DNA of 63,972 bases, the filler included, from Phoronis australis (taxonomy: Eukaryota > Animalia > Phoronida): assembly GCA_002633005.1 (NCBI GenBank). It is 12 parts of 12 records of this genome, joined end to end, with 100 filler letters (N's around TTAATTAATTAA, not from the genome) between each part and the next. Parts side by side here need not be neighbours in the genome. Positions count along the whole stretch, not along the records: positions 1 to 10,744 come from NMRA01001097.1; 11 more parts are not named here. The stretch is one strand, 5' to 3'. Positions 1-62,852 of the stretch are shown here, piece after piece. The notes under the pieces are model-generated. The model was not told the DNA's origin and searched no databases. It was given only the letters and a program-made list of their open reading frames with translations. Position numbers and translations under genes: made by a program. Within the stretch, counting starts at the first letter, position 1; every line of letters starts with the position of its first letter.

Positions 1-566
1 GGGTTCATTCTTTTCTAGGTTTTACCAGTTACCACTTTGTTCAATGTCATTGACAAGTTGACTGTGTTCTCTCTGCATTTGTTCCTAACCAGTAAAACAC
101 CATATAGGCCTACCAAAGATTGACTAATTGAATATTCCTTAAACTACTTCATACTTCAGTTGTATTTTAATAATAGCCAATTCCAATATCATTTTAATCA
201 TGTATTGGTGTTCTGTCATAATCCTATTCCTGTTTGTCAATGACACACATTCGTTAGAAATTATTTTGGACCTCGGACAGAAGTGAAACTGGACGTATAA
301 CTTAGTTTTACCATGTTTTTCAATTGATGCACCCAGCAGGTATGGTCGATATACTAAGAAAACTAGGCGACCTTCAACATTGCTGTCCAATACATGGTAT
401 TTTGTGGCTAACAAAGGAAAATATAATTAAATGTTTTACTCACATCAAATTAACAGAGAATCTGTGTACAAGTGTGATATTTCAACATTTGCATGACAAG
501 TCATTAAGATTCACAGTGAAGTTAGTGATTGTGAAGTTTGCTATAACTTGTTCATTGTTTCTGCAG

Positions 567-662
567 GACCACACCGCACTTCACATGGCAGCAGGGGCGG
601 GCAGAGCGGAGGTGGTGAGGGTGCTGGTGCAGGGTGGGGCCGATGTAGACATGCAGACCGAG
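567..662 (+). CDS. Ankyrin-repeat gene, divergent upstream exon (one ANK repeat, phase 0-0)
   Basis: ctgcag|GAC...GAG|gtaata; 96 nt reading DHTALHMAAGAGRAEVVRVLVQGGADVDMQTE, which matches the ankyrin consensus TxLHxAAxxGxxEVVxxLxxxGADV. Confidence 0.85.
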
Positions 663-1227
663 GTAATAGAAACTACTTGAGACGACATTAGAATTAAGAC
701 AATGTTATCTTTATTACAAAAGCTGTAGACTATCTGAAGTTTAACTAAATATTTTGTGTGTAAATACACTTTTCATATCTCATGATTTCAACATGTATTT
801 TTCAATCTGTACCGTGTACATGCATCTTAAGAAACATTGAGGTTTGAATTGTGTCAACAATATATTTGTCGACTTAACGTTGATTCTTTTCTATTCTTAA
901 TGACAATCGTCCATTCAACATTACAACTTTATATTAAACACGAAGCCAGAAAATCGGTGAAGAAATACAACATGGCGGGATCGCTGTCAAGTTATGGAGG
1001 AACTCTGTAATTTCTTACAGTCGACGTCTACAACATGTTCTGTTGTTACAGCAACGTTTTAAAATCTGTAACACTTGGTTCTTGAAATCATTACAAGTAT
1101 TCTAGCGTCTTAGAGGGGTCAGTAATGTTTCATTTATGTCACCTTACAAGTTCACTTTCCCCCGTTTATGTTAATTAGCTCTAAACGTTGATCGTCCATT
1201 CACACATCTCCATTATATATTACATAG

Positions 1228-1326
1228 ATGGGCGAGACACCGCTGCACGAGGCAGCACGGGGTGGTCATACAGACACAGTGAAGGTGCTGATGGCCAACA
1301 AGGCCAGTGTAGATGTACGTGATAAG
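1228..1326 (+). CDS. Ankyrin cassette exon A (99 nt, phase 0-0)
   Basis: catag|ATG...AAG|gtaagt; MGETPLHEAARGGHTDTVKVLMANKASVDVRDK. Confidence 0.9.
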
Positions 1327-1685
1327 GTAAGTAATGACACACAGGTTGTTTAGTTGAACTAGTTGTTTACACACACGATGATTAAAACTGTTTAGGAACA
1401 AGTTTTGTTGATATTTTTCACAATTTATTGTCCAAAAACAATGACAAGTTCAATGTCGTCTGCTTTTCTTGGTGAAGAACCAAAGCTGCGTAGAGTTGTA
1501 ACATGTTCTGTAACGGTTTAAAATCTGTAACACTTGATTCTTGAAATCATTACAAACATTGTAGCGTCTTAGAGGGGTCAGTAATGTTTCATTTATGTCA
1601 CTTTACAAGGTAACTTTCCCCGTGTATGTTAATTAGCTCTAAACGTTGATCGTCCATTCACACATCTCCATTATATATTACATAG

Positions 1686-1784
1686 TTGGGCCGGACACCG
1701 CTGCACTGGGCAGCAGAGGGTGGTTATACAGACGTAGTGAAGGTGATGTTGGCCAACAAGGCCAGTGTAGATGTACGTGAATGG
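1686..1784 (+). CDS. Ankyrin cassette exon B (99 nt, phase 0-0)
   Basis: catag|TTG...TGG|gtaagt; LGRTPLHWAAEGGYTDVVKVMLANKASVDVREW. Confidence 0.9.
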
Positions 1785-2149
1785 GTAAGTAATGACACAC
1801 AGGTTGTTTAGTTGAAATAGTTGTTAACAAACACGATGATTTAAACTGTTTAGGAATACATTTTGTTGATATTTTTCACAATTTATTGTCCTAAAACAAT
1901 GACAAGTTATATGTCGTCTGCTTTTCTTGGTGAAGAACCAAAGCTGCGTAGAGTTGTAACATGTTCTGTAACGTTTTAAAATCTGAAGCACTCATGTTGA
2001 TTCTTGAAATCATTACAAGTATTGTAGCGTCTTAGAGGGGTCAGTAATGTTTCATTTATGTCACCTTACAAGTTCACTTTCCCCCGTGTATGTTAATTAG
2101 CTCTAAACGTTGATCGTCCATTCACACATCTCCATTATATATTACATAG

Positions 2150-2248
2150 AGGGGCGAGACACCGCTGCACTGGGCAGCATGGGGTGGTCATACAGACATA
2201 GTGAAAGTGATGTTGGCCAACAAGGCCAGTGTAGATGTACGTGATGAG
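2150..2248 (+). CDS. Ankyrin cassette exon C (99 nt, phase 0-0)
   Basis: catag|AGG...GAG|gtaggt; RGETPLHWAAWGGHTDIVKVMLANKASVDVRDE. Confidence 0.9.
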
Positions 2249-2605
2249 GTAGGTAATGACACACAGGTTGTTTAGTTGAACTAGTTGTTAACAAACACGA
2301 TGATTAAAACTGTTTAGGAACAAATTTTGTTGATATTTTTCACAATTTATTGTCCAAAAACAATAAGTTCAATGTCGTCTGCTTTTCTTGGTGAAGAACC
2401 AAAGCTGCATAGAGTTGTAACATCTTCTGTAACATTATAAAATCTGTAACACTTTATTCTTGAAATCATTACAAGTATTGTAGCGTCTTAGAGGGATCAG
2501 TAATGTTGCATTTATGTCACCTTACAAGTTCAATTTCCCCCGTGTATGTTAATTAGCTCTAAACGTTGATCGTCCATTCACACATCTCCATTATATATTA
2601 CACAG

Positions 2606-2707
2606 ATGGGCCGGACACCGCTGCACAAGGCAGCACTGTGTGGTCATACAGACGCAGCGAAGGTGATGTTGGCCAACAAGGCCAGTGTAGATGTACGTGA
2701 TAAGTGG
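2606..2707 (+). CDS. Ankyrin cassette exon D (102 nt, phase 0-0)
   Basis: cacag|ATG...AAG TGG|gtgagt; MGRTPLHKAALCGHTDAAKVMLANKASVDVRDKW. Confidence 0.88.
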
Positions 2708-3260
2708 GTGAGTAATGACACACAGGTTGTTTAGTTGAACAAGTTGTTTACACAACGATGATGAACACACAACATGTGACTTGGCTGAATCATTCAATGA
2801 TTTAATTAATCGTGATTTATGATTTCATTTTAAACATTGACATTTTTGTTGCATTCCACCGCCCGTGACGTGACGTGCACGCGACTTTAATTAATTATAA
2901 ACAGTTTTTAGTTCACCTAGACTTGCACAGTGACTTGGTTCTTTACTTGCATTTCCACAGCACTCATTAAATGAATGTCGCTCTGTTGTAATGTATAAGA
3001 TCAAGTTGTTATATTTAAAACACTCTTTTCAATCACGTGACCACATCAGATCAGAGGAACGTTTAAAAAATCCTGCGCAAGTTATGTCTGAGTTTAAATG
3101 TCAGGTTTTAGTCTCGTCCTGTTGAGTCACACCCTTCATAAGTATTGCAACTGGTGTTGAAGTTTGAACTGGGAAAGTATAAAACTCGACCTGTTCACCC
3201 ACCCACATCACTCCTGTATAATGCTGATCAACATTATCTATTTTTGTTCACTTACTGTAG

Positions 3261-3362
3261 TTGGGTAACACACCGCTGCACGCGGCATCTGAAAAAGGAC
3301 ACACAGAGGTAGTGAAACTGCTGTGCAGGGAAAGCAGATGCGACGTCAATGCCGTCAACGAG
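3261..3362 (+). CDS. Ankyrin-repeat gene, divergent downstream exon (102 nt, phase 0-0)
   Basis: ctgtag|TTG...GAG|gtattg; LGNTPLHAASEKGHTEVVKLLCRESRCDVNAVNE. Confidence 0.88.
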
Positions 3363-4939
3363 GTATTGCAAGAGTGTTGTACTTCTTGATTAGTTAAGAC
3401 TGAAATAAATGTGTTTTAAATGGACTATGAATTTGAGAATTCATTCATTCGTAATAAATATCAAAAATGATCCATCTCCTACTTACAAAGAATCTCTTCT
3501 TCACTCCACGTACATGTACCTCCCCAGATCACTCAGTGGATCAAAGCAGCTTGTCTAATCGTAATAACTTGGAAGAAATAACCAAACGCGCCATCAATGG
3601 TCGACAACAGCCACAGGTTCAGATTTCCTCGCTTCATTAATTATAACACATGTATGTTTTTAATCGGTTCACTGCAAGGAATCAGATGCGCGTTTAGGAA
3701 GGAAATCTTGGAAGGTTTTAGTCTTGCTTTGTTTAATATAACGATAATTTAGCAATCAATTTATCCATGTGTTTTAACCCCATGGCTTAACCGTACATGT
3801 ATTTCAACCCCACCACACAAGCGTGTTTGTTCCTGCCAAGGTCGGATTTACTATTGTATGATGCTGAAATCTAGGGCGTGACTGAGGCAAAGTCCCGGGC
3901 AGTCCGTCGAAAGCACAAGTCCTTTTACCACGGTGCCAAGCCGAGCACTCTGAATCTGGTAAACGAGCTGTAATCCACAATACATGTAAATCCAAAGTCT
4001 GTGTATACATGTGCAGGTGCTTTAAATTGTGTATACACTGAAACTGGATAGTTTACGATTTTTGCGTGAATTTTGTTGTCGGAAACAGTACCGTGTTTTT
4101 TACCTGTCGTCTGCTTCACTTGTTTCAAAAATATGGCATCGTGCTTCATCTCGTTGATCTCTCGTCTTTTTGTTATGTAAGCAAGTTTTATTGTTTAGCT
4201 GCGGAAACTTTTAAAGTTATCAGGATGTATTTCATCATTTCAATGTGGGGCTTGTGTTGAGGTACGTGATTTCTTTTTGAAACATCTTGATTAGGTCTGG
4301 CCGTGATTTGTGTTGGTGGCCACGTTATCAAAAGTTTCATGTGTCAAACATACATTAACCAGTCCAAACATCTCATTTACTGCTTTTAAAATGTACAACA
4401 GAAACTTCAAAATGATGTAGGAACTTATCTGAGGTCCACCACATTGGAGAATGAATACACCTGATGTTCGGAACTGATTTTACAGTTTTGTCGGTAGTGC
4501 TCACACGGTACTCTGAGTTTGAGGATTTGTTCATTTATCAACAAACTATTTCATCAAAAAGACCTACATCTTGCTTTAAAACCACTTCTGTACATATTTA
4601 GTTTCAGTTATTAAATCGAAGCGCCATTGATTTATTTATATGCCATGGAATGTGTTGGTGAAAGCCATTTTCATTCAAACTGCTATTTCTGCTCTATGCC
4701 TTATTTTTTAAACTTCCTCTCGCGCAAGCCAGTGATGTCGGGCTATTTTGCTCTGGGAATCCCTTCATGATCGCCACATGCAGTAACAAAGCGATAAATA
4801 CTGACTGCTTGTTATAAGTGACACGTTTTGTACCCTTAAAATATCAACACAATTATTTAAGTTTGCCAATTTCAAGCTAAAAGAATTCAAATTTATGCCG
4901 GGATATCTGGCAGAAAAATAGATTAATTACAAATGGGTG

Positions 4940-6510
4940 CCTGCTTCGCTAAAAAAATTGAAATTGACTAATAAATCACTTAGATGGTAATTTTTATGTT
5001 TCAAAAGTTCAGATTGATGCCATTATTTGTGTCTCGTTGTTTAAACAAAAGATAGCGGTATGTGAGTCTCGATGGTGTACATGTGTCGGTGAAGTTCACT
5101 TTACTGGTAAACATGGTATTTATAAGATTATATATTTATTACCGAAGTTAACAAAACATGCCTTCAGTAGAGCAAAAAAGTAAAAATACTTATAACTGAG
5201 TGCCAAACACACCACGGTGAGTCGTCTAGCGCTCGTGAGCTATCATTCAAACCCGTACTAAACAACCCACTGTACTTTTTCATCACATGTTCAAGCCATG
5301 TGGCCTCAGAATATTGTAGACTATTGAGTAGAGATAGTAAAAGTATTTGCCTATATCCGTGATTCATGAAAAAAATGAAAAGTTGGCGCTGGGAAATGAT
5401 CCAATACATTGTGTTTCCGATAGAGAACAGTACATTTTCCAGTTATACTGATCGTGGCCAACTGTCGCATTTTTTGATTTTTCCAGCAGTGCACACCGTG
5501 AAAATGTTCAGGTTTACTGACTCATGGTAAAACCGGCACATTACAGGCTATAGCCCTCACTTTCAGTTCTGCTAAAGAAAAAAGGCACTCATATATTTCC
5601 AGTCGGCTAAACACAAAAGCTTCGAACTGTTGTGGTCATTACAGCACCCGTAATGTTCGTTCGTCTAAACGGGTCGTTTCTTCTGTTGCTACGATTATCT
5701 CACCCGTTTGCTGGCAGACCCAGATTTGCCGCTTTATATTAAGGTATCAATTTTCCTTCTCTAATACTGACAACTATTCAGTAGCTGAACGAAATGACAT
5801 TGACTATGTGTCATGAATATTGTTATTTTGTTAGTTTTCACAGCGCAGACTCCTTAGTGTCTCTTGTCTACAGGCATCCTAAGTGTCGACGTTTTTAACA
5901 GTTGATGAAGAAATTCATTTCTCAGATTAATACGCATGCCAATAGTGCCTGTACTTTCCTCACGCGTTCAAATTCATTTTATTGAAACAAAACATTGAAA
6001 TTCGGAAATATAAAAGTATAGCCCATATAATAGACGTAATTGACATTTGACATGGACTTTGACGTCCATTTATTATTCCTCCCATATTTACTCAATAACG
6101 GATTTTTACAGTACCTAACTTAGTTTGCCCGCTGATGGCCACGCGTGTCCTTTTCAGTAAACCGTCATGTAACGCTTCAATAAAGCATGATGCTGTTTCT
6201 GGATTCCAAGTTGGACATCCTTTATCAATCATTGTGGCGCACGGAAGAGAAATGACACGTCTTTCTTTTCTCCGGGACTGCAAAGTCCGAATTCTTCCAG
6301 TCAATGCATACAGTATGGACGGTTTAAGAAGTTAATTCCACACGCCGTGTATGTCCAACACGCTGTACGCAAAATGGTTGTGAGTCCTTACGTATCGGAT
6401 ATTTATTTGGTTGGAAACTCTAAATATTGGCATCTGAAAAAATCAACTTTCACGCAAACTACTCTCAGAACGCAGCCAATGTTGTCCATAAAGTGAACGT
6501 TTGCAAATCT
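4940..6510 (+). repeat. Diverged non-coding duplication, copy 1 (paralogue of 8470-10735)
   Basis: Collinear blocks, e.g. ttgaaattgac-aataaatcac...tcaaaagttcag, ctcgtgagctatcattca, gtttcttctgttgct...gcagacccagattt, and tatttggtt-gaaactc, occur in both copies. Confidence 0.8.
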
Positions 6511-8469
6511 ACATTTTGTGGAATAATTGAATTAGACAGCCGACAAGAATTAAATCAAACAATTTCGGGTGCGAAAATGGACTTTTGCGGTATTACTTGG
6601 TAAACTTGTCGTGTAGATTTCTAGAAAAGATTCTAAAAATGTGCCAGTCACGAAACAAACAACGCTAATTTTATAAAGATGGTCGATTGCTAGAACGTGT
6701 GGAATATTTGAGCTTATTTGAAAGAAACGCACAGCAGTAGACGCGTGCATTTGAATCGTTTCATTCAATGTGATGGTGACACATCAGTTTACATAGCGTC
6801 TGAGAATGGTTAACGAACGAACAGTCTTGAAAGTAATTTTTGAAAAACGTGTCAATGTCGCAGTTGTCAAACAGGTAAAACACCAATGTAAATCACATTG
6901 TGTAGCAAGACAGAACTTTAAAAAATAATGAAAACACTTTCCGACTTAACTTTAATTTTCAAGTGTTGTTTTCTCTTCATCTAAGCGCGAAATATTCGTA
7001 TAAACGTTGGTGCTGATTGTCCAAGTTCCCTCAGTTTTAGATCACGACATACATTACATGTATAATTTATACTGACCTCAATTTCAACATAGCTATAATT
7101 TTGTACATAATCTGACTCCATTTCCGGAACATTTACTTCCATGTTCACTAAAGATATGTTAGTGATTGGTGGCAACATGTTATTTTTGGACCACATCTTA
7201 TGTTCTCATAAGTATAAACAATAGTTTCAAATTGCCTTTATTATTCAGTAAAAAGCTACCAAAGTTCGTTGGATTACAAATTTATTTTTGTGAATGAAAT
7301 ATATCCTCATCGTTTCTTTCGGTTTGTATTTTGCAATTTTTTCTAGCTATCTTCACTGAAATTGTCACCAAAGTATCATTGACACAAACCTGTTCAGCTA
7401 TTTAATGTTAGTTGTGCCAGTCCGTTCAACTTTGCATACATTAGTCGTGCTTACATGTCGACGGGCGCCACCATTCGCAATAACTGTTATGTCAGCAAAA
7501 GTTTCATTGATTTTCTTATACATGCACAGTGTACACAATTCCAATTATTTGCCTTGTGAGCCAATATGTCTGTTTTATACATTTTTACCTTATGTGCACG
7601 AAGTTGCACAAAGGCGTGGATTTAAAAAATTACAAAAGTATACAAAAATAATTATGCGCACATATACAACGGATTTCCACCTGTGCCTATAAGCAAGGCA
7701 TAAGCATGCGTCTACAAGTATATGTGAAACACTTAAGAAGGAAATTTTCCTTAGTTTCTTTATTTCCTAAGCACGGAACGCACTTGTAATGTTGTGCAGT
7801 GGGTTACGATTTCCATGGTTTACTCGAAAGAATTAAAGTGCATTACAATGTGACAAGTAAATGTGTGGCACGCATGTAAAGCATATGCTTAAGCGGTCGA
7901 ATAAATGTCAATGGCAATCTGACTATTCGTGTATTCGATCAGCAACACAGATGTTGATACCTGAAGGCTATTCCTACTGTGACAGAAGAATGGCCAAATT
8001 CAGTTGACATGATATAGACCGAGCATCTGCTTGAGCGAAATCAGTTTGCAAAATTTAAAAAAGAAAGGACCAAATAGTTTACGTAAGCCACTGGTGTGCC
8101 AGTTGCAAATGACTAACGTTCATTGAAAAATAACGATCACACCCAGTGGGCTCAAGGATTAGGATCATTCATTATGATTATTAAAAATGAATAAGATTAT
8201 ATGGCGTATCAATTTTGTTTACATTCCATACATGTACATTTTTCACCTGCCTTATCGAGAGTCGCATCGCTCTTCTAACACCCAAAATAGCTTGACAGCA
8301 ACAAAGTATCCGTTAGATTTGATTAAAATACATCAAAGTTGCTTCATTTTGTCCTCGATTAAAAATCAGACAATTTCTTTCGCTAATCTGACTGAAAATA
8401 GACCACTTAGCTTTTATTTACATATGCAGTTCAACCAGGAATTGAAATGGTGCTAATGTGTACTGTGTT

Positions 8470-10735
8470 CAGCTTCACTAAAAACCTTGAAATTGACAAA
8501 TAAATCACCGAGATGGTATTTTTTATGTTTCAAAAGTTCAGGTTGATGCCCTATTTCGGTTGTTTAAACAAAATATGGCGGTATGTGAGTCTCGACGGTG
8601 TTCATGTGTCGGCGAGGTTGCCTTTACTTGTAAACATGGCATTTATAGGATTATATATTTATTACACATGTTCAAAAAAACATGACTTTAGTAGAGCCAA
8701 AACGGTTAATTTTAGAGCGATAAAACGAGAAATAAAATCTAGGAGTGGAATCCTCGTTTTCCCAGGTTTTTACAAACTCGCAAGGGAATAACAGACTATT
8801 TCGTTTGCTCAGTTGCAGTTGATTCGGCGAATTTAGTTAGTCATGGTGAATGCGCTTTTGATCATTTTCATCATTTTGTTTTTCTTCAGACTTAGGCGGA
8901 TATATTTGATTACAAGTTGTTAGACATCTTGATGAGCTTAGCAGTATCTTGCCTCACTCTTAACGTTAATAATGCAAATGACAAATCTGATTAAAACATG
9001 TCACAATCATACAGGTAAAGTTGGTTGCGCTGTGTAAAATACAAAGTACATGTAGGTGTCGAACACACCTTGGTACGTCGTCAAGCACTCGTGAGCTATC
9101 ATTCATAAACTGAGTAAACAACGTGCTTTTGCATCACGTGTTCAGTCCATGCCACTTTAGTGTATTCTAGTTTTTTAAGTAGTTATAGTTATAGTGTATG
9201 GATTATCGGTAAATAAAAAATCCAATGCTTAGCTTTACCAATAGAGTACAATGCACACACAATCCTGCTCTTGACAAACTGTCGTATTTTTATTTTTCCA
9301 GCAGTCAAAGTGTTCTTGTTTTTAACTCACGGCAAAACTAGCATATCACGTAATATGTCGCTCGAGGAGGCAGTGTGGCCTGGTTGATAAGTGCCCGCTT
9401 TCTATACTCGAGGTCGTGGGTTCAAGTCCCACCATGTCACACTGCTAAACCCTTGAGCCAGGTTTCCAGCTCCTCAGCTCGGTTTTAACCATATATTAAT
9501 AAAGCATAAAAATATTTCCAGGTGATCAGTGCAATGGGTCCACATGCGAGGCCTGCGCCCGCCTGGTACTACGTGTATCAGACAGCCTGCAATTTTTAAT
9601 ATATCGCTCACTTTCCGTTCTATTAAAGAAAAAAAACAGGATGTATATTATTTTACGACACTCTTAAGTTTGCAGTCGACTAAATTCAAAAATTTCTGGC
9701 GCTTGGGCGTTACGACACTCGTAATCTTCGGTCGACAAAAACGCTGTAGGTTAGTTTCTTCTGTTGCTGTAATCATTTCACTCGTTCTTTCAGCAGACCC
9801 AGATTTTCTGCTTGTTATCAAGATGTCGCTTTTCTTTATCTAACACTGACAACTATGACAGGAGGTGATCTAAGTAACATTGACTAATTGTCAGGATATA
9901 AGTTATATTTTTATTTTTCACAGTGCAGACTCTTTAGCAACATGACAATCGTAAAATAGGTGGCAGTGTCACTTGTTTACAGTAATGCAAATTATCGCTG
10001 TTTTCATAATTTATTAAGAAGTTACCGGTAGTTCATTTTTATGATTACGCTTTTCAACAATGTCTTCGCTTTCCTCACCCGTCCAAAGTCATATTATTGA
10101 AACATTATATTATGTAAATGTAGTGTGGAAGTTTTTAAAAAGTCATACAGGTATAGACTACACAAAAGACGTAACTGACATTCGTCTTTGAACTAACAAT
10201 CCTAGATTTAATCAAGAACTGCTTTTCCAGTAACTCAGCAACAAAGAACATTGTGATGGGTGCGCTCTCTTCAGGCGCGAAATACCGACCATAGGTGTCC
10301 TTTGATGAAACCGCTATATAACTCTTCAATAAATCACAGTCTGGATTCCCAAGTTGCACATTCTGTACCAATCTGAAGTAAAACTGAGGTTTGATGTTAC
10401 CGCTCAATTTGGCCCACGGTAAAGGAATTGTACGTCTTTCTTATTCTCCGCCACCAAACTCTTCCGATTTGTGCATACAGTATTGACGTTTTATGAAGTC
10501 AAACACGAAATTGTCCGCAACTGCATTCCACTCATTGTGTATGTTCAATAAAATTCAGCCTACTGTAGGTAAAATGATTGTGACTCGTAATGTGTCGAGT
10601 ATATATTTGGTTAGAAACTCCAAAGATTGGTATTTGACACTCCCTCAGTTCGCACGCAAATCTGTTGCAGAACGCCTGCAGAACATCGTGCAATCTTGTC
10701 CATACCGATTTTAAAACAAACACTTTCAAATCTGC
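8470..10735 (+). repeat. Diverged non-coding duplication, copy 2 (with extra insertions including a SINE)
   Basis: Collinear similarity to 4940-6510; runs almost to the segment end. Confidence 0.8.
9364..9596 (+). mobile_element. tRNA-derived SINE, full length
   Basis: A-box-like TGGCCTGGTTGATAAG and B-box GGTTCAAGTCC. 13-bp TSD taatatgtcgctc (9351-9363) / taatatatcgctc (9597-9609). Absent from the paralogous site near 5550; second copy at 24483. Confidence 0.8.
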
Positions 10736-10744
10736 AAGCTCTGC

Positions 10745-10844
10745 NNNNNNNNNNNNNNNNNNNNNNNNNNNNNNNNNNNNNNNNNNNNTTAATTAATTAA
10801 NNNNNNNNNNNNNNNNNNNNNNNNNNNNNNNNNNNNNNNNNNNN
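10745..10844. other. Artificial contig spacer (first of 11)
   Basis: 44N-TTAATTAATTAA-44N, giving stops in all six frames. Identical spacers start at 19333, 21952, 32791, 35604, 38020, 43007, 51828, 55207, 57819 and 62853. Confidence 0.97.
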
Positions 10845-24185: not shown

Positions 24186-24482
24186 GATGCGAACGGAATG
24201 GAATGAAGATTGTTAACAGCAACGAGTGCCAATAATAATCATAAATATATTTAGAAGTTTCCCTACAATGTACTGTTGGCCTATGATACATTGTCAGGTT
24301 TAGGCATGAGCCTGCCCCCCCCCCGAGCTGCCGCAAGCAAAAGGAAACAGCAACAGCAACAGCATGCACCGTGAGTAACTGGGACCGCTAGCGCCGGAAT
24401 CACGTTCGCTTTTTTTAGTCCACCAATACATTTGCAGAACGCAAGGTCCACATCACCTGTCCGCTTTCATTACTCATGATCA

Positions 24483-24668
24483 TGGGTTCAAGTCCCACCA
24501 GGTCACACTGCTAAACCCTTGAGCCAGGTCTCTTGCTCCTCAGCACGGTTTTAACCCTATATTCATAAAGCATAAAAATATTTCCAGATGATCAGTGCAA
24601 TGGGTCCACATGCAAGGCCTGCGCACGTCTGGTACAACGTGTATCAGACCACCTGCAATTATTTTTTT
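24483..24668 (+). mobile_element. 5'-truncated copy of the tRNA-derived SINE
   Basis: High identity to 9417-9596, from the B-box to cctgcaatt. Confidence 0.8.
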
Positions 24669-25699
24669 ACCCCTCCAACTTTCGGGTCGCCTGTGCACAT
24701 ACAATTGCGATTTGCCCAATTCCACGAGCGACATGTTTGGGCTTCCCTTATTGTATTCTAGATGCGCCACTGTGATACTATTGACGGAAGTTTTTGACAC
24801 TAGGGTTGTGCAAATGATATATATGTCAATGTCGGTGAGCCTTTCCTCCCCCTGGAACAAAGCTGCGTGAATTACACAAATATTTGTTGTGTAACATTGT
24901 AACGAATTCATTTTTGTTGGTTAATACTTTTACTTATGATTATGAGCTGATTCGTACGGTACTGAATTTAAACAAACACTAATACTACTTGCAGCAAAAA
25001 ACAGCTGATGCGACTTAAGTGTAAACATGGGAAATGGGAAAATCAGTTGAAGACGTTTCTGGCTTTAATATTCCATAACATGTCTGAATCATCTTGTGAA
25101 GGTTTTAAATTACATGAGAGAGAACTTCAAAAAATCAAAAAAGTCGACGCATTACTTATTAAGTAATTAATTAATTTGGTTAATAACCAAATCTTGAAAC
25201 GAGGGAACGGCTGCTCCGTGAAACCGGAAGTTTTCTATTCTGCGTTTGCAGCGCCCTCGTATGGTAAGTGCTTATGTCTCTTGGTCCTTGACATGCTCAA
25301 CTCTCTCTAACGGGAGTTGGTAGTCCCTATCTATAGTCTATGGTGACAAAACTCCGACTCTGTGTCAGGTAGTCTTTAACTGCGAGTCCGAAAAATGCCG
25401 GCTGACCAAAGAACTATCCATAAGTTCCGTTGCCTGTGCAATTTCACGGAGCCTCTCTAGTATTTCTTGATCACCGTATTCCGATTCGAAGTCTTGATTG
25501 CAAGTTGCCATGATGACGTTTATTCTGCGTTCTGTTTCAAAATGAATTATTCTCACTCTAACCAATGCTTATATAAATCTGGAACAAAGTCTGTCTCATT
25601 AGATACAATTTATAATACCTTTGGAGTATTCGTGAATGGAAATGTTTTAAGAAGTCAGCAATGAATAAACCCAGACATATCCTCAAGTTTTCTTTGCTT

Positions 25700-30515: not shown

Positions 30516-30614
30516 ACTGATCAAACCCTGTTGCACTACGCAGCTGTGGGAGGCAACGCCAAAGTTTTCGAGTTAAGTTTGCGGCATGTCGCAGATGTCA
30601 AGTCATGTGACAAG
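30516..30614 (+). CDS. Isolated ankyrin-repeat exon (99 nt, phase 0-0), possibly decaying
   Basis: ttttacag|ACT...AAG|gtaagc; TDQTLLHYAAVGGNAKVFELSLRHVADVKSCDK. Confidence 0.7.
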
Positions 30615-40052: not shown

Positions 40053-42057
40053 TTTTTATGCGCCCACATATTTATATGTGGACGCATTATGCCGTCATCT
40101 CTGTCCGTCCGGGCGGCGTCCGTCCGGCGTCCGTCCGGCGTCCGTCCGGCATCCGCTGCTCTATCTCCAAAACCCTTTGACATACGTTCATGAAATTTAG
40201 CACATATGTTCCATTCATGAATGGGACGGCATGTGCGAACTTTCGGACGGATCCGACTACCGGTGTGCCCCCTAGTGGCAATTTTAGTTTTTTACGCTTA
40301 CCTTTGTATCTTCAAAAGTCCTTATTGGATTTTCATGAAATTTGGTATGTAGGCACCTAGTAGTGAGATGACGCTATCCTGCCGTTTTCAGATGGATTCG
40401 ACATAGTTTGCGCCACCTAGTGGCCATTTTTAGTGTTTTCGAGTCTGTTTTTGTGCTTCCACCCCTCTATCAACCAAACCGCTCAAAGGATGATTGTGAA
40501 AATTGGCATGTATGTGCTTACTATGTAGAGGACGGTTGACGATGATTTTCCGACGATTTCGACTACTGTGGCGCCTCCTAGTGGCAGTTTTGTTTTTTTT
40601 GCGCCTATGGCTGTATCTCCTAAACCGTTCGCAGGATCTTTACGAAATTGTGTAAGTATATTTATATGATGTTAACAACGGAAGATGACGACTTTTGGAC
40701 GGATCCGACTACCGGTGTGCCCCCTAGTGGCAATTTTAATTTTTTTACGCTTACCTTTGTATCTTCACAAGTCCTTATTGGATTTTCATGAAATTTGGTA
40801 TGTAGGCACCTATTAGTGAGATGACGCTATCCTCCCGTTTTCAGATGGATTCGACATAGTTTGCGCCACCTAGTGGCCATTTTTAGTGTTTTCGAGTCTG
40901 TTTTTGTGCGTCCACCCCTCTATCAACCAAACCGCTCAAAGGATGATTGTGAAAATTGGCATGTATATGCTTACTATGTAGAGGATGGTTGACGATGATT
41001 TTCCGACGATTTCGACTACTGTGGCGCCTCCTAGTGGCAGTTTTGTTTTTTTGCGCCTATGGCTGTATCTCCTAAACCGTTCGCAGGATCTTTACAAATT
41101 GTGTAAGTATATTTATATGATGTTAACAACGGAAGATGACGACTTTTGGTCGGATCCGACTACCGGTGTGCCCCCTAGTGGCAATTTTAGTTTTTTACGC
41201 TTACCTTTGTATCTTCAAAAGTATTGAACGGATTTTCATGAAATTTGGTATGTAGGCACCTATTAGTGAGATGACGCTATCCTACTGTTTTCAGATGGAT
41301 TCGACGTAGTTTGCGCCACCTAGTGGCCATTTTTACTGTTTTCGAGTCTGTATTTTTGCGTCCACCCCTCTATCAACCAAACCGCTCAAAGGATGATTGT
41401 GAAAATTGGCGTGTATGTGCTTACTATAAGGAAGACAGCTGACAATGATTTTCAGACGATTTGGACTACTGTGGCGCCTCCTAGTGGCAGTTTTGTTTTT
41501 TTGCGCCCATGGCTGTATCTCCCAAACCGTTTGCAGGATCTTTACTAAATTTAGCAAGTGTATTTATGTGATGTTGACAACGGACGATGACGACTTTAGG
41601 ATGATTCTGACTACCGGTATGCCTCTAGTGGCAATTTTAGTATTTGCCTCTAGTGGCAATTTTAGTATTTTACATTGACCTCTGTATTTTCATAGGTCTT
41701 CAGGTGTATACTTTGTGTTACTTCGTGACTATGAAGGAAAAGTTCCAAGTAGAAATTTGTTTCTGGCATTCTAATGCTGTGCTAATCTCGTATGTTGGTA
41801 AATTTGTTTTTAATTCTATGTTTCTGTGGTGCTTTAAGCAACTGGTGTATAGGATGTGCTTGTATTATGAAGATTACTCACATTTTGCCCCTAGCCTATT
41901 GAGGAGACAAGGACCATGCCTTTCCATTTTGCAAAGTACAACATACTACATATATGCCCTCCACTGGCCACTTTATGGTACCAATAAACAACCCTAGAAG
42001 GATACCGTATGCGGTGCAATTGTGGGCGCATTTCAACGCTCTGCGTTGCTCTTGTTT
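40053..42057 (+). mobile_element. Non-autonomous Helentron-associated (HINE/DINE-1/pearl-like) element with internal satellite
   Basis: 5' subterminal ATGCGCCCACA with nearby inverted TGTGGACGCAT; (CGTC)n microsatellite; central ~452-bp tandem repeats; 3' TGTGGGCGCAT plus hairpin CAACGC-tct-GCGTTG; T-rich flanks. Confidence 0.75.
40180..41665. repeat. Higher-order satellite: ~452-bp unit made of three ~145/145/161-bp subunits, ~3.3 copies
   Basis: ggatccgactaccggtgtgccccctagtggc recurs at ~452-bp spacing; each subunit contains CCTAGTGGC. Confidence 0.92.
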
Positions 42058-61859: not shown

Positions 61860-62852
61860 TGTAGCATTGAGTAGTGTACTGTATATAAAGATGATTTCTT
61901 TGTTGGTATTTATTATCTGACCAGTAACCTTGACACTACTTATCGCTACGTCATCAATTTGTGTGTTATACCAAGAGCGGCCTCTAGGGTAAACTAAAGT
62001 AACTACATTACATCTCTCCCTCCTTACGAATAGACGTTACACAATCGAGACCGTCAATACAAAAATCAAATAATAAAACTGCCTTTAGCAGATGAGCAAA
62101 CAAACATCTATGACTAGAACGACTAAAGTCTATCAAACATAGCGGCACTAAATGTCCATCACGAAGTCCTCATATTTCGCAGGCGCGTTCCTAGTTCTGC
62201 TCGAACGACGTAACTGTGGTTCGTCACTTGCAGTCATCTCCTTGGATGAGGTATCTTCAGATCCTGGTTCTGGTTGAGACTTGTCACAAAGGTCTGGTAT
62301 TTTCTTCATGTGCGATGAATTTCTGGTAACCACATGACCATCACGTGCTGCGGTGATCATATTTCCTTTCTTCTCAACCACTTCGTAAGGTAAGGGTTTA
62401 TATGGTGTTGAGAGCTTGTTGGTTTTCTCTTGCTTAACTAGAACTGTGTCTCCAGGCTGCAAAGGACACGTTTTGTTAGCGTTGTTACGACTATCAGCAA
62501 TGTCCTTCATGTATGTTTTCATACGAGCATCTCTGGTGCGAGCAAAATCAAGCTTCTCTTCAAAGGTCACCTTCTTCGGCTTTGTAAGTGTTGGAAGTTC
62601 CGTTCTGAGTTTTCTGCCATTTAGCATTTCAGAGGGAGACATGCCAGTGGTTGACTGGGGTGTTGCTCTGTAATGACGCAGAAATGTATACAGTTCCTGC
62701 TTCCAACTTCCTTTCTCCACCGTGGCTGCACGGATTGCCTTTTCAAGAGTTCTCATAAACCTCTCTGCCTCACCATTTGCCTGGGGGTAACGTGGAGTTA
62801 TTTTCTTGTGTTTAAAACCAACAAGTTTTGCCCAATTTGCAAACTCCTCACT
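61860..62852 (-). mobile_element. 3' part of a Ty3/Gypsy LTR retrotransposon: integrase C-terminus, PPT and short 3' LTR
   Basis: Open frame 62148-62852; PPT AAGGAGGGAGAGA directly before an LTR TGTA...TACA (62012 to 61860) that contains AATAAA. Confidence 0.88.
62148..62852 (-). CDS. Gypsy Pol integrase, C-terminal part (truncated by spacer)
   Basis: ITPRYPQANGEAERFMRTL...FLRHYRATPQSTTGMSPSEML.GRKLRT...PGDTVLVKQ...PY...RNSSH...LRRSSR. Confidence 0.9.
   Translation of the reverse strand, partial: SEEFANWAKLVGFKHKKITPRYPQANGEAERFMRTLEKAIRAATVEKGSWKQELYTFLRHYRATPQSTTGMSPSEMLNGRKLRTELPTLTKPKKVTFEEKLDFARTRDARMKTYMKDIADSRNNANKTCPLQPGDTVLVKQEKTNKLSTPYKPLPYEVVEKKGNMITAARDGHVVTRNSSHMKKIPDLCDKSQPEPGSEDTSSKEMTASDEPQLRRSSRTRNAPAKYEDFVMDI

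Follow-up and report, generated by a model that had tools for sequence, protein, structure and literature searches.

Repeats that are homogenized within a gene and carry selected contact residues have already been described in fungal NLRs and in the one-repeat exons of brown algae. In the accessible parts of PMC4986451 and PMC13449251, the ANK repeats of fungal NLRs, such as Podospora Pa_3_8560, combine a homogenized scaffold with selected face sites. Brown-algal LRR-ROCO and NB-ARC-TPR receptors, which are candidate immune receptors, carry one repeat per phase-0 exon, show diversifying selection on the binding surface, and undergo exon shuffling between copies. In this report, we describe a locus of the phoronid Phoronis australis (GenBank assembly GCA_002633005.1) in which the repeated and evolving unit is a single ankyrin exon plus its intron, here called a cassette. 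The locus is a six-exon ankyrin stretch at positions 567–3362 (+ strand) of a window of 63,972 nucleotides. Because this window was put together from 12 pieces with the spacer N44-TTAATTAATTAA-N44 between them (the first at 10745–10844, with ten more following), only the first piece, positions 1–10744 (NMRA01001097.1, hereafter the contig), is context for the ankyrin gene, and the analysis refers to it. Six codons on the presumed binding face of the cassettes have changed far faster than their introns, and we suggest that the cassettes probably belong to a variable intracellular sensor.

The original prediction drew an analogy with the fungal and brown-algal arrays, and the comparison bears it out in its main features. 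[quoted passage not shown] It differs from them in that the repeated unit is an exon plus its intron, and in that no NACHT or other NTPase domain is seen on the contig, where the gene runs off the end of the sequence. The available text of PMC13449251 reports an enrichment of internally conserved repeats among NLR-like proteins that bear an ATPase (odds ratio 4.78), and also the occurrence of such repeats, as sensor repeats, in animals. In comparison with the brown-algal receptors, the phoronid repeats are ankyrin instead of LRR or TPR, neither ROC-COR nor NB-ARC is seen on the contig, and the inverted or dead intronic exons of the algal genes were not found there; RNA joints in orders absent from the contig may recall the algal shuffling, with paralogues or off-contig exons as possible sources.

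Other systems share part of this organization. DARPin and related libraries, as presented in the accessible parts of PMC3308923, PMC8683736, and PMC8229355, agree with the cassettes in scaffold register and in the six variable surface positions; the cassettes differ in being natural, genomic, and intron-separated, with no capping repeats identified and with binding only predicted. Vertebrate NLRs such as NLRP3 have exon-modular LRR domains with reported control of splicing, to judge from the available part of PMC6642158; they are animal immune sensors whose modules match exons, as in the cassettes, and permit in-frame skipping, whereas the phoronid units are ankyrin repeats, homogenized as cassettes and under diversifying selection. 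In what is accessible of PMC8195603, ankyrins are proposed as invader-recognition modules in marine-invertebrate expansions, and no analysis of the individual repeats is given there.

The Exon–Intron Cassette Array

Within 567–3362 lie six phase-0 exons bounded by AG..GT, all of which (6/6) exceed the Pfam Ank cut-off. The features are as follows.

567–662 (+): divergent ankyrin exon upstream of the cassettes, 32 codons, phase 0-0 (96 nt, AG..GT; Pfam Ank 34.8 bits)
663–1227 (+): intron, the last ~175 nt of which (from ~1053) are part of the repeated unit
1053–2762 (+): tandem array of the 458-bp unit (Tandem Repeats Finder, alignment)
1228–1326 (+): cassette exon 1, 99 nt; face residues (codons 1, 3, 8, 11, 12, 33) M, E, E, R, G, K (AG..GT, Pfam Ank)
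1686–1784 (+): cassette exon 2, 99 nt; face residues, same codons, L, R, W, E, G, W (AG..GT, Pfam Ank)
2150–2248 (+): cassette exon 3, 99 nt; face residues, same codons, R, E, W, W, G, E (AG..GT, Pfam Ank)
2606–2707 (+): cassette exon 4, 102 nt, 34 codons; face residues, same codons, M, R, K, L, C, K and an additional W (AG..GT, Pfam Ank)
3261–3362 (+): second-type ankyrin exon, 102 nt, 34 codons (AG..GT; Pfam Ank 44.2 bits)
3363–10744 (+): long intron or intergenic sequence that reaches the end of the contig and in which no other exon or domain was recognized

The introns are of the GT-AG type, and the guanine-plus-cytosine content is 37–40%; together with the analogous proteins named below, these features would suggest an invertebrate animal. 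When joined in order, the six exons form 199 stop-free codons with repeat spacings of 33, 33, 33, 33, and 34, and a phase-0 exon finder run over 500–3420 with a positive control recovered only these six acceptors. Tandem Repeats Finder describes a 458-bp exon-plus-intron unit in 3.7 copies (1053–2762, 91% matches, score 2849), and by alignment both ends of the tandem array fall inside introns. Coordinates, Pfam, and Tandem Repeats Finder thus agree with the predicted four ~460-bp cassettes, each with a phase-0 ankyrin exon and flanked by divergent ankyrin exons, and the 458-bp unit bears out the duplication of whole exon–intron cassettes.

Pairwise, the three full introns have 19–20 differences per 356–359 sites (~94.5% identical), and the cassette exons have 9–15 differences per 99 sites (85–91% DNA identity), with proportions of nonsynonymous differences of 0.105–0.20 and of synonymous differences of 0–0.065. 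The amino-acid identity among cassettes is 0.87 on the scaffold, 0.33 on the face, and ~0.75 overall. Codons 23–31 are invariant across the four cassette exons, and the sole synonymous codon difference is AAG/AAA at codon 19. The near-identity that had been claimed for scaffold and introns holds for these codons, but the introns are ~5.5% apart. The residues listed by the prediction for codons 1, 3, 8, 11, 17, and 33 were all recovered; codons 12, 14, 18, 21, 22, and 32 each differ once. Private substitutions in the four units amount to 3, 9, 5, and 9 of 228 intron columns, and there are private indels as well. A six-frame hidden Markov model search and a two-strand exon scan found no inverted or dead repeat exons inside the introns of the contig.

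Variable Codons and the Predicted Binding Face

The register of the repeat was fixed by alignment with DARPin chains, which places codons 33, 1, 3, 8, 11, and 12 at repeat positions 2, 3, 5, 10, 13, and 14. In the accessible part of PMC3308923, precisely these six positions are randomized as one exposed surface, and positions 26 and 33 are kept constant outside it; in the cassettes, positions 26 and 33 (codons 24 and 31) are invariant. The six codons coincide with that surface, as the prediction of variable residues on one surface had it. The claimed match to the DARPin library positions holds for them. Codon 17 (T/V/I/A) is variable, with all four combinations of two sites present, yet lies outside the six. 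The face assignment is based on this alignment and on the literature. AlphaFold, when given a single 33-residue repeat without an alignment, returned one long helix (predicted template modelling score 0.44), which is uninformative about the face because, according to the available part of PMC8229355, a lone ankyrin repeat does not fold by itself.

As a neutral yardstick, we used the shared intron flanks, which have 24 changes in 228 columns. The six face codons require a minimum of 15 changes at their 12 first and second positions, 11.9-fold over the intron rate (binomial p = 2.4e-10), and none at their six third positions; when the two splice-adjacent codons are left out, there are still 10 changes at eight positions (p = 1.2e-7). 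The remaining 27 codons have six changes at 54 positions, 1.06-fold compared with the intron rate (p = 0.82). Random six-codon sets reach 15 changes with p = 1.2e-5, and the set of positions chosen first (2, 3, 5, 13, 14, and 33) has 12 changes at 12 positions (p = 1e-7). In a neutral simulation with a star tree, intron-derived rates, and a seven-codon set, the observed count was reached in 0/50,000 runs at both one and two times the rate and with a frequency of 0.0017 at three times. Because relaxed constraint is capped at the neutral rate, and because a mutational hot spot would also hit third positions, the pattern is best read as selection for new residues on the face; diversifying selection on the six face codons, as originally predicted, is supported. 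The exons also contain conflicting two-two splits, with three sites one way and two another, and the upstream intron has 0/18, which suggests short conversion tracts or recurrent change in the exon.

Transcription and Splicing of the Family

The RNA data mapped on positions 1–10744, at 85% likeness, comprise three raw runs (~18–19% of each) and one contig set, all under the same species label. The joint figures given here come from the 15 of 89 joints listed, and the junction residues from the 12 of 141 rows listed, 11 of them from the contig set and all read by hand; between samples, differences of individual and of tissue are inseparable in these joints. The depth over the array is stranded to + (first mate on −) in 3/3 raw runs. 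Cassette exons are spliced to the second-type exon (1323, 1326, and 2246 to 3263) and to other cassette exons (1776 to 1228, with 14, 7, and 0 reads in the three runs), and the second-type exon is spliced to its own kind and back to a cassette (3362 to 1237, with 14, 13, and 0 reads). In other words, in the RNA of the family the second-type exon is also repeated and is then followed by cassette-type exons. Because the last two orders are absent from the contig, they must come from paralogues, other alleles, or exons past the contig end.

These junctions widen the range of residues on the face: the rows listed add at least R, D, V, and L at codon 33, S, G, and W at codon 1, and L, W, and M at codon 3. 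Cassette exons with one extra codon, as in cassette exon 4, are also present among the hand-read joints. Transcription and in-frame splicing, in several exon orders, therefore hold for the multi-copy family, and it is at this level that the prediction of transcribed exons was confirmed (3/3 raw runs).

Two further observations concern relatives of the array in the RNA. At 2205, 64, 40, and 208 reads agree with the cassette exon as far as codon 19 and then pass into a different ankyrin second half, so that the switch marks either a related exon subtype or a chimeric exon. Over 662–1220, a paralogue of the intron, ~10% divergent and following the end of a different ankyrin exon, is abundant in RNA (a depth of 143.8 in sample X7 and a 577-nt contig in X8); it may represent intron retention, an alternative end, or pre-mRNA, and it shows one intron attached to different exons.

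Linked Domains and Analogous Proteins

Searches among proteins, with one exon or the exon alignment as query, returned generic ankyrin proteins, none of them an orthologue, and an exact 23-nt exon motif had 0 matches in metagenome contigs. In canonical ankyrin genes, too, exons with a single ankyrin repeat occur. The first exon (567–662) matches one ankyrin-3 repeat at 20/32 residues; the cassettes match ankyrin-3 repeats at 13–15 of 33 or 34 residues and out of order. They are therefore not a canonical ankyrin, and ANK1–3 were rejected as candidates, because the matches are confined to those 13–15 residues and are not collinear.

Among the proteins retrieved, 228 had at least five in-register repeats; in 39 of these the scaffold identity was 0.75 or more, and in 27 of the 39 the face identity was 0.5 or less. 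Twelve of these 27 analogues carry ROC/COR, nSTAND3, NACHT, Death, CARD, TIR, or GT4-conflict domains, three carry a kinase, one a weak AAA, and 11 no other domain. Where a second domain is present, it is thus of an immune or conflict type in 12/16, including 3/3 of the named lancelet proteins and the brachiopod one. The named animal members are the lancelet P0105, P0022, and P0231, the brachiopod P0237, and the abalone P0077 and P0203; scaffold/face identities for five of them are given below.

Branchiostoma belcheri P0105 (ANK-ROC-COR-GT4-CARD): 0.89/0.15
Branchiostoma belcheri P0022 (ANK-Death): 0.81/0.33
Branchiostoma belcheri P0231 (ANK-GT4): 0.83/0.30
Lingula anatina P0237 (ANK-TIR): 0.78/0.19
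Haliotis rubra P0077 (nSTAND3-ANK): 0.83/0.43

All five have a fixed scaffold and a face that varies at the cassette positions, and the cassettes share their per-position profile with P0105 and P0022. The scaffold sequences differ, and these proteins are not orthologues of the cassette gene.

Proposed Function and Alternative Explanations

Since 12/16 of the analogues with another domain are of an immune or conflict type, an intracellular sensor of non-self is the likeliest role. We take the cassettes to form the ankyrin binding domain of one gene in a multi-copy family; by this analogy, it is reasonably probable that this domain acts as the variable sensor in an immune receptor, with the signalling domain to be expected off the contig. 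Unequal crossing-over with breakpoints in the introns would change the number of cassettes, and gene conversion would exchange short tracts and so reshuffle codons. Because every exon is of phase 0-0, the gain, loss, or swap of a cassette keeps the frame; with stacked repeats, each in-frame product would rebuild a continuous binding groove, on which selection would retain new face residues. By analogy with the proteins above, the ligand may be a pathogen or other non-self protein, and the output may be a ROC-COR, STAND, death-fold, or TIR domain leading to signalling or cell death. We also suggest, with considerably more reserve, that the locus may be part of a genomic DARPin library, the ankyrin counterpart of brown-algal LRR exon shuffling, in which cassettes with one ankyrin exon each would move between many loci as well as within them and would be joined by in-frame splicing, giving every individual a sensor repertoire of its own; if so, such exchange probably also underlies, as an unrecognized principle, the ankyrin-ROCO, -Death, and -TIR expansions seen in marine invertebrates.

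Several points weigh against the sensor interpretation and against parts of its evidence. No effector domain was found on the contig, as had been noted beforehand: 0/64 scanned segments pass any Pfam cut-off, out of 89 open segments of at least 45 codons, the other 25 lying in 306–3415 over the array. No orthologue was found among the 280 proteins from the protein searches, where the best scaffold identity is 19/27. The immune role therefore rests on analogy; of the predicted immune or allorecognition receptor, the diversifying binding face stands, and the receptor function itself has no effector domain on the contig to match it. The 27 analogues entered the set through their similarity to the cassettes, include non-animals, and are no random sample, and two of the Roc matches among them are just under the curated cut-off. 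As for selection, the set of positions was fixed after the data had been viewed, four copies were compared, and the tests count changes and are not codon models (codeml). Face positions are variable in all ankyrins. The scaffold codons match the introns in their rate of change, a pattern that does not demonstrate purifying selection on the scaffold. In the accessible part of PMC5120217, accelerated divergence is a feature of repeat evolution in general, with no immune role attached, and the cassette identity of ~75% is below the 85% (across 100 amino acids or more) that defines high internal conservation in fungi. Finally, reads that are 99% alike over the whole contig number 19/3325, 16/3094, and 19/3441 and come mostly from a repeat, and at some exon sites nearly every read has a letter other than that of this copy (at 1734, in 61/64, 56/65, and 86/86), so that the RNA evidence reaches the family and not demonstrably this copy.

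It is unlikely, though worth serious consideration, that the selection is real and the conflict non-immune: the family would bind self or selfish partners that evolve fast (in gamete recognition or symbiont control, or as transposon or drive proteins), or would itself be a secreted or kinase-linked adaptor. No effector is seen in the scanned contig segments, and 15/27 analogues have a kinase, a weak AAA, or nothing else. The PRDM9 array, a single-exon minisatellite, encodes DNA-binding zinc fingers and is non-immune. The available text of PMC5120217 describes it as an animal array that, like the cassettes, is homogenized within the gene and has positively selected contact residues, diversifying for a non-immune reason with a horizontal ratio of nonsynonymous to synonymous change of 2.7. 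What speaks for the immune sensor instead is the predominance of immune or conflict domains among the 16 analogues that have a second domain.

A distinctly improbable explanation is that the family consists of diversifying sensors, among which this copy would be no working gene but a silent fragment or a donor of sequence. It would account for the few 99% reads, for the rarity in RNA of several exon letters of this copy, and for the lack of a downstream exon in 7.4 kb, and none of the 15 of 89 joints listed leads from 3362 to a downstream site on the contig. Against it, all six exons keep their splice sites and their join is stop-free over 199 codons; the RNA is from other samples, so alleles may differ; and the contig simply ends at 10744.

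We consider it very improbable that the cassettes are per-transcript alternatives or are somatically rearranged, Dscam-like or lamprey-VLR-like, with a different receptor in each cell. All exons are of phase 0-0, many exon orders are found in RNA, and the joints vary by sample: 1326 to 3263 has 0, 0, and 25 reads in the three runs, 2702 to 1237 has 10, 16, and 0, and 3360 to 3263 (second type to second type) has 22, 11, and 0. But paralogues and alleles account for these orders without somatic change, inverted or dead intronic copies were not found on the contig, and the cassette-to-cassette joints (1776 to 1228 and 2702 to 1237) rule out strict mutual exclusion; Dscam-type mutually exclusive exons were rejected on this ground.

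That the surface codons are under relaxed constraint or in a local mutation hot spot, with no selection for diversity, is barely credible: these positions tolerate change in all ankyrins and only four copies are available, yet the face codons exceed by 11.9-fold the intron rate that would be the ceiling, and their six third positions, which a hot spot would strike, have no changes. An assembly artefact, conceivable in a draft of short contigs, was rejected as having a negligible probability, since each unit has private substitutions and indels and the RNA independently shows cassette-to-cassette splicing.

Other Features of the Window

Past 3590, the RNA depth on the contig does not exceed 6.5 per bin, the exception being a repeat at 9335–9693 (9364–9594). 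This repeat is dispersed and highly transcribed, with an RNA depth of 400–560, and is the source of most mapped reads; a second copy at 24458–24675 is 88% identical, and no Rfam match to the repeat passes. We take it to be SINE-like (short interspersed nuclear element), with a B-box-like motif. An Rfam search of 1–10744 gave one weak partial match, far under the gathering score. The contig also contains an old, degenerate, non-coding duplication, 4943–6437 versus 8472–10637, in five blocks of 63–84% identity.

Features past 10744 belong to unrelated pieces and are not neighbours of the ankyrin array. At 30516–30614 (+), an ankyrin-like phase-0 exon of 99 nt stands by itself; its boundaries have the register of those in the array, its Pfam Ank E-value is 0.02 (under the cut-off), and its DNA is unrelated to the array. 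At 40239–41645, a 450-bp tandem unit is present in 3.1 copies with 93% matches, and no ankyrin exon was found there. An open frame at 62151–62849 (−) has a weak rve_3 integrase match (E = 0.0022, under the cut-off) and is likely a retrotransposon remnant.

Conclusions

In the literature searched, which left most subscription papers and all supplements outside, we found no description of selected single-ankyrin exon cassettes in animals. The ankyrin exon–intron cassette as the evolving unit is new, and to this extent the novelty originally proposed stands; the face-variable pattern itself is already present in lancelet, abalone, and brachiopod proteins and in the animal repeats of PMC13449251. 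Because the principle is known in fungi and brown algae, the surprise is limited.

Invertebrates have no antibodies, and the source of their broad intracellular recognition is an open question. One ankyrin exon with its intron, duplicated as a unit and hypervariable at the positions that engineers randomize, offers a testable route to such recognition. That the face-variable pattern recurs in proteins of lancelet, abalone, and brachiopod points to a widespread and little-analysed class, and the cassettes would be a natural guide to the working residues on ankyrin binding faces.

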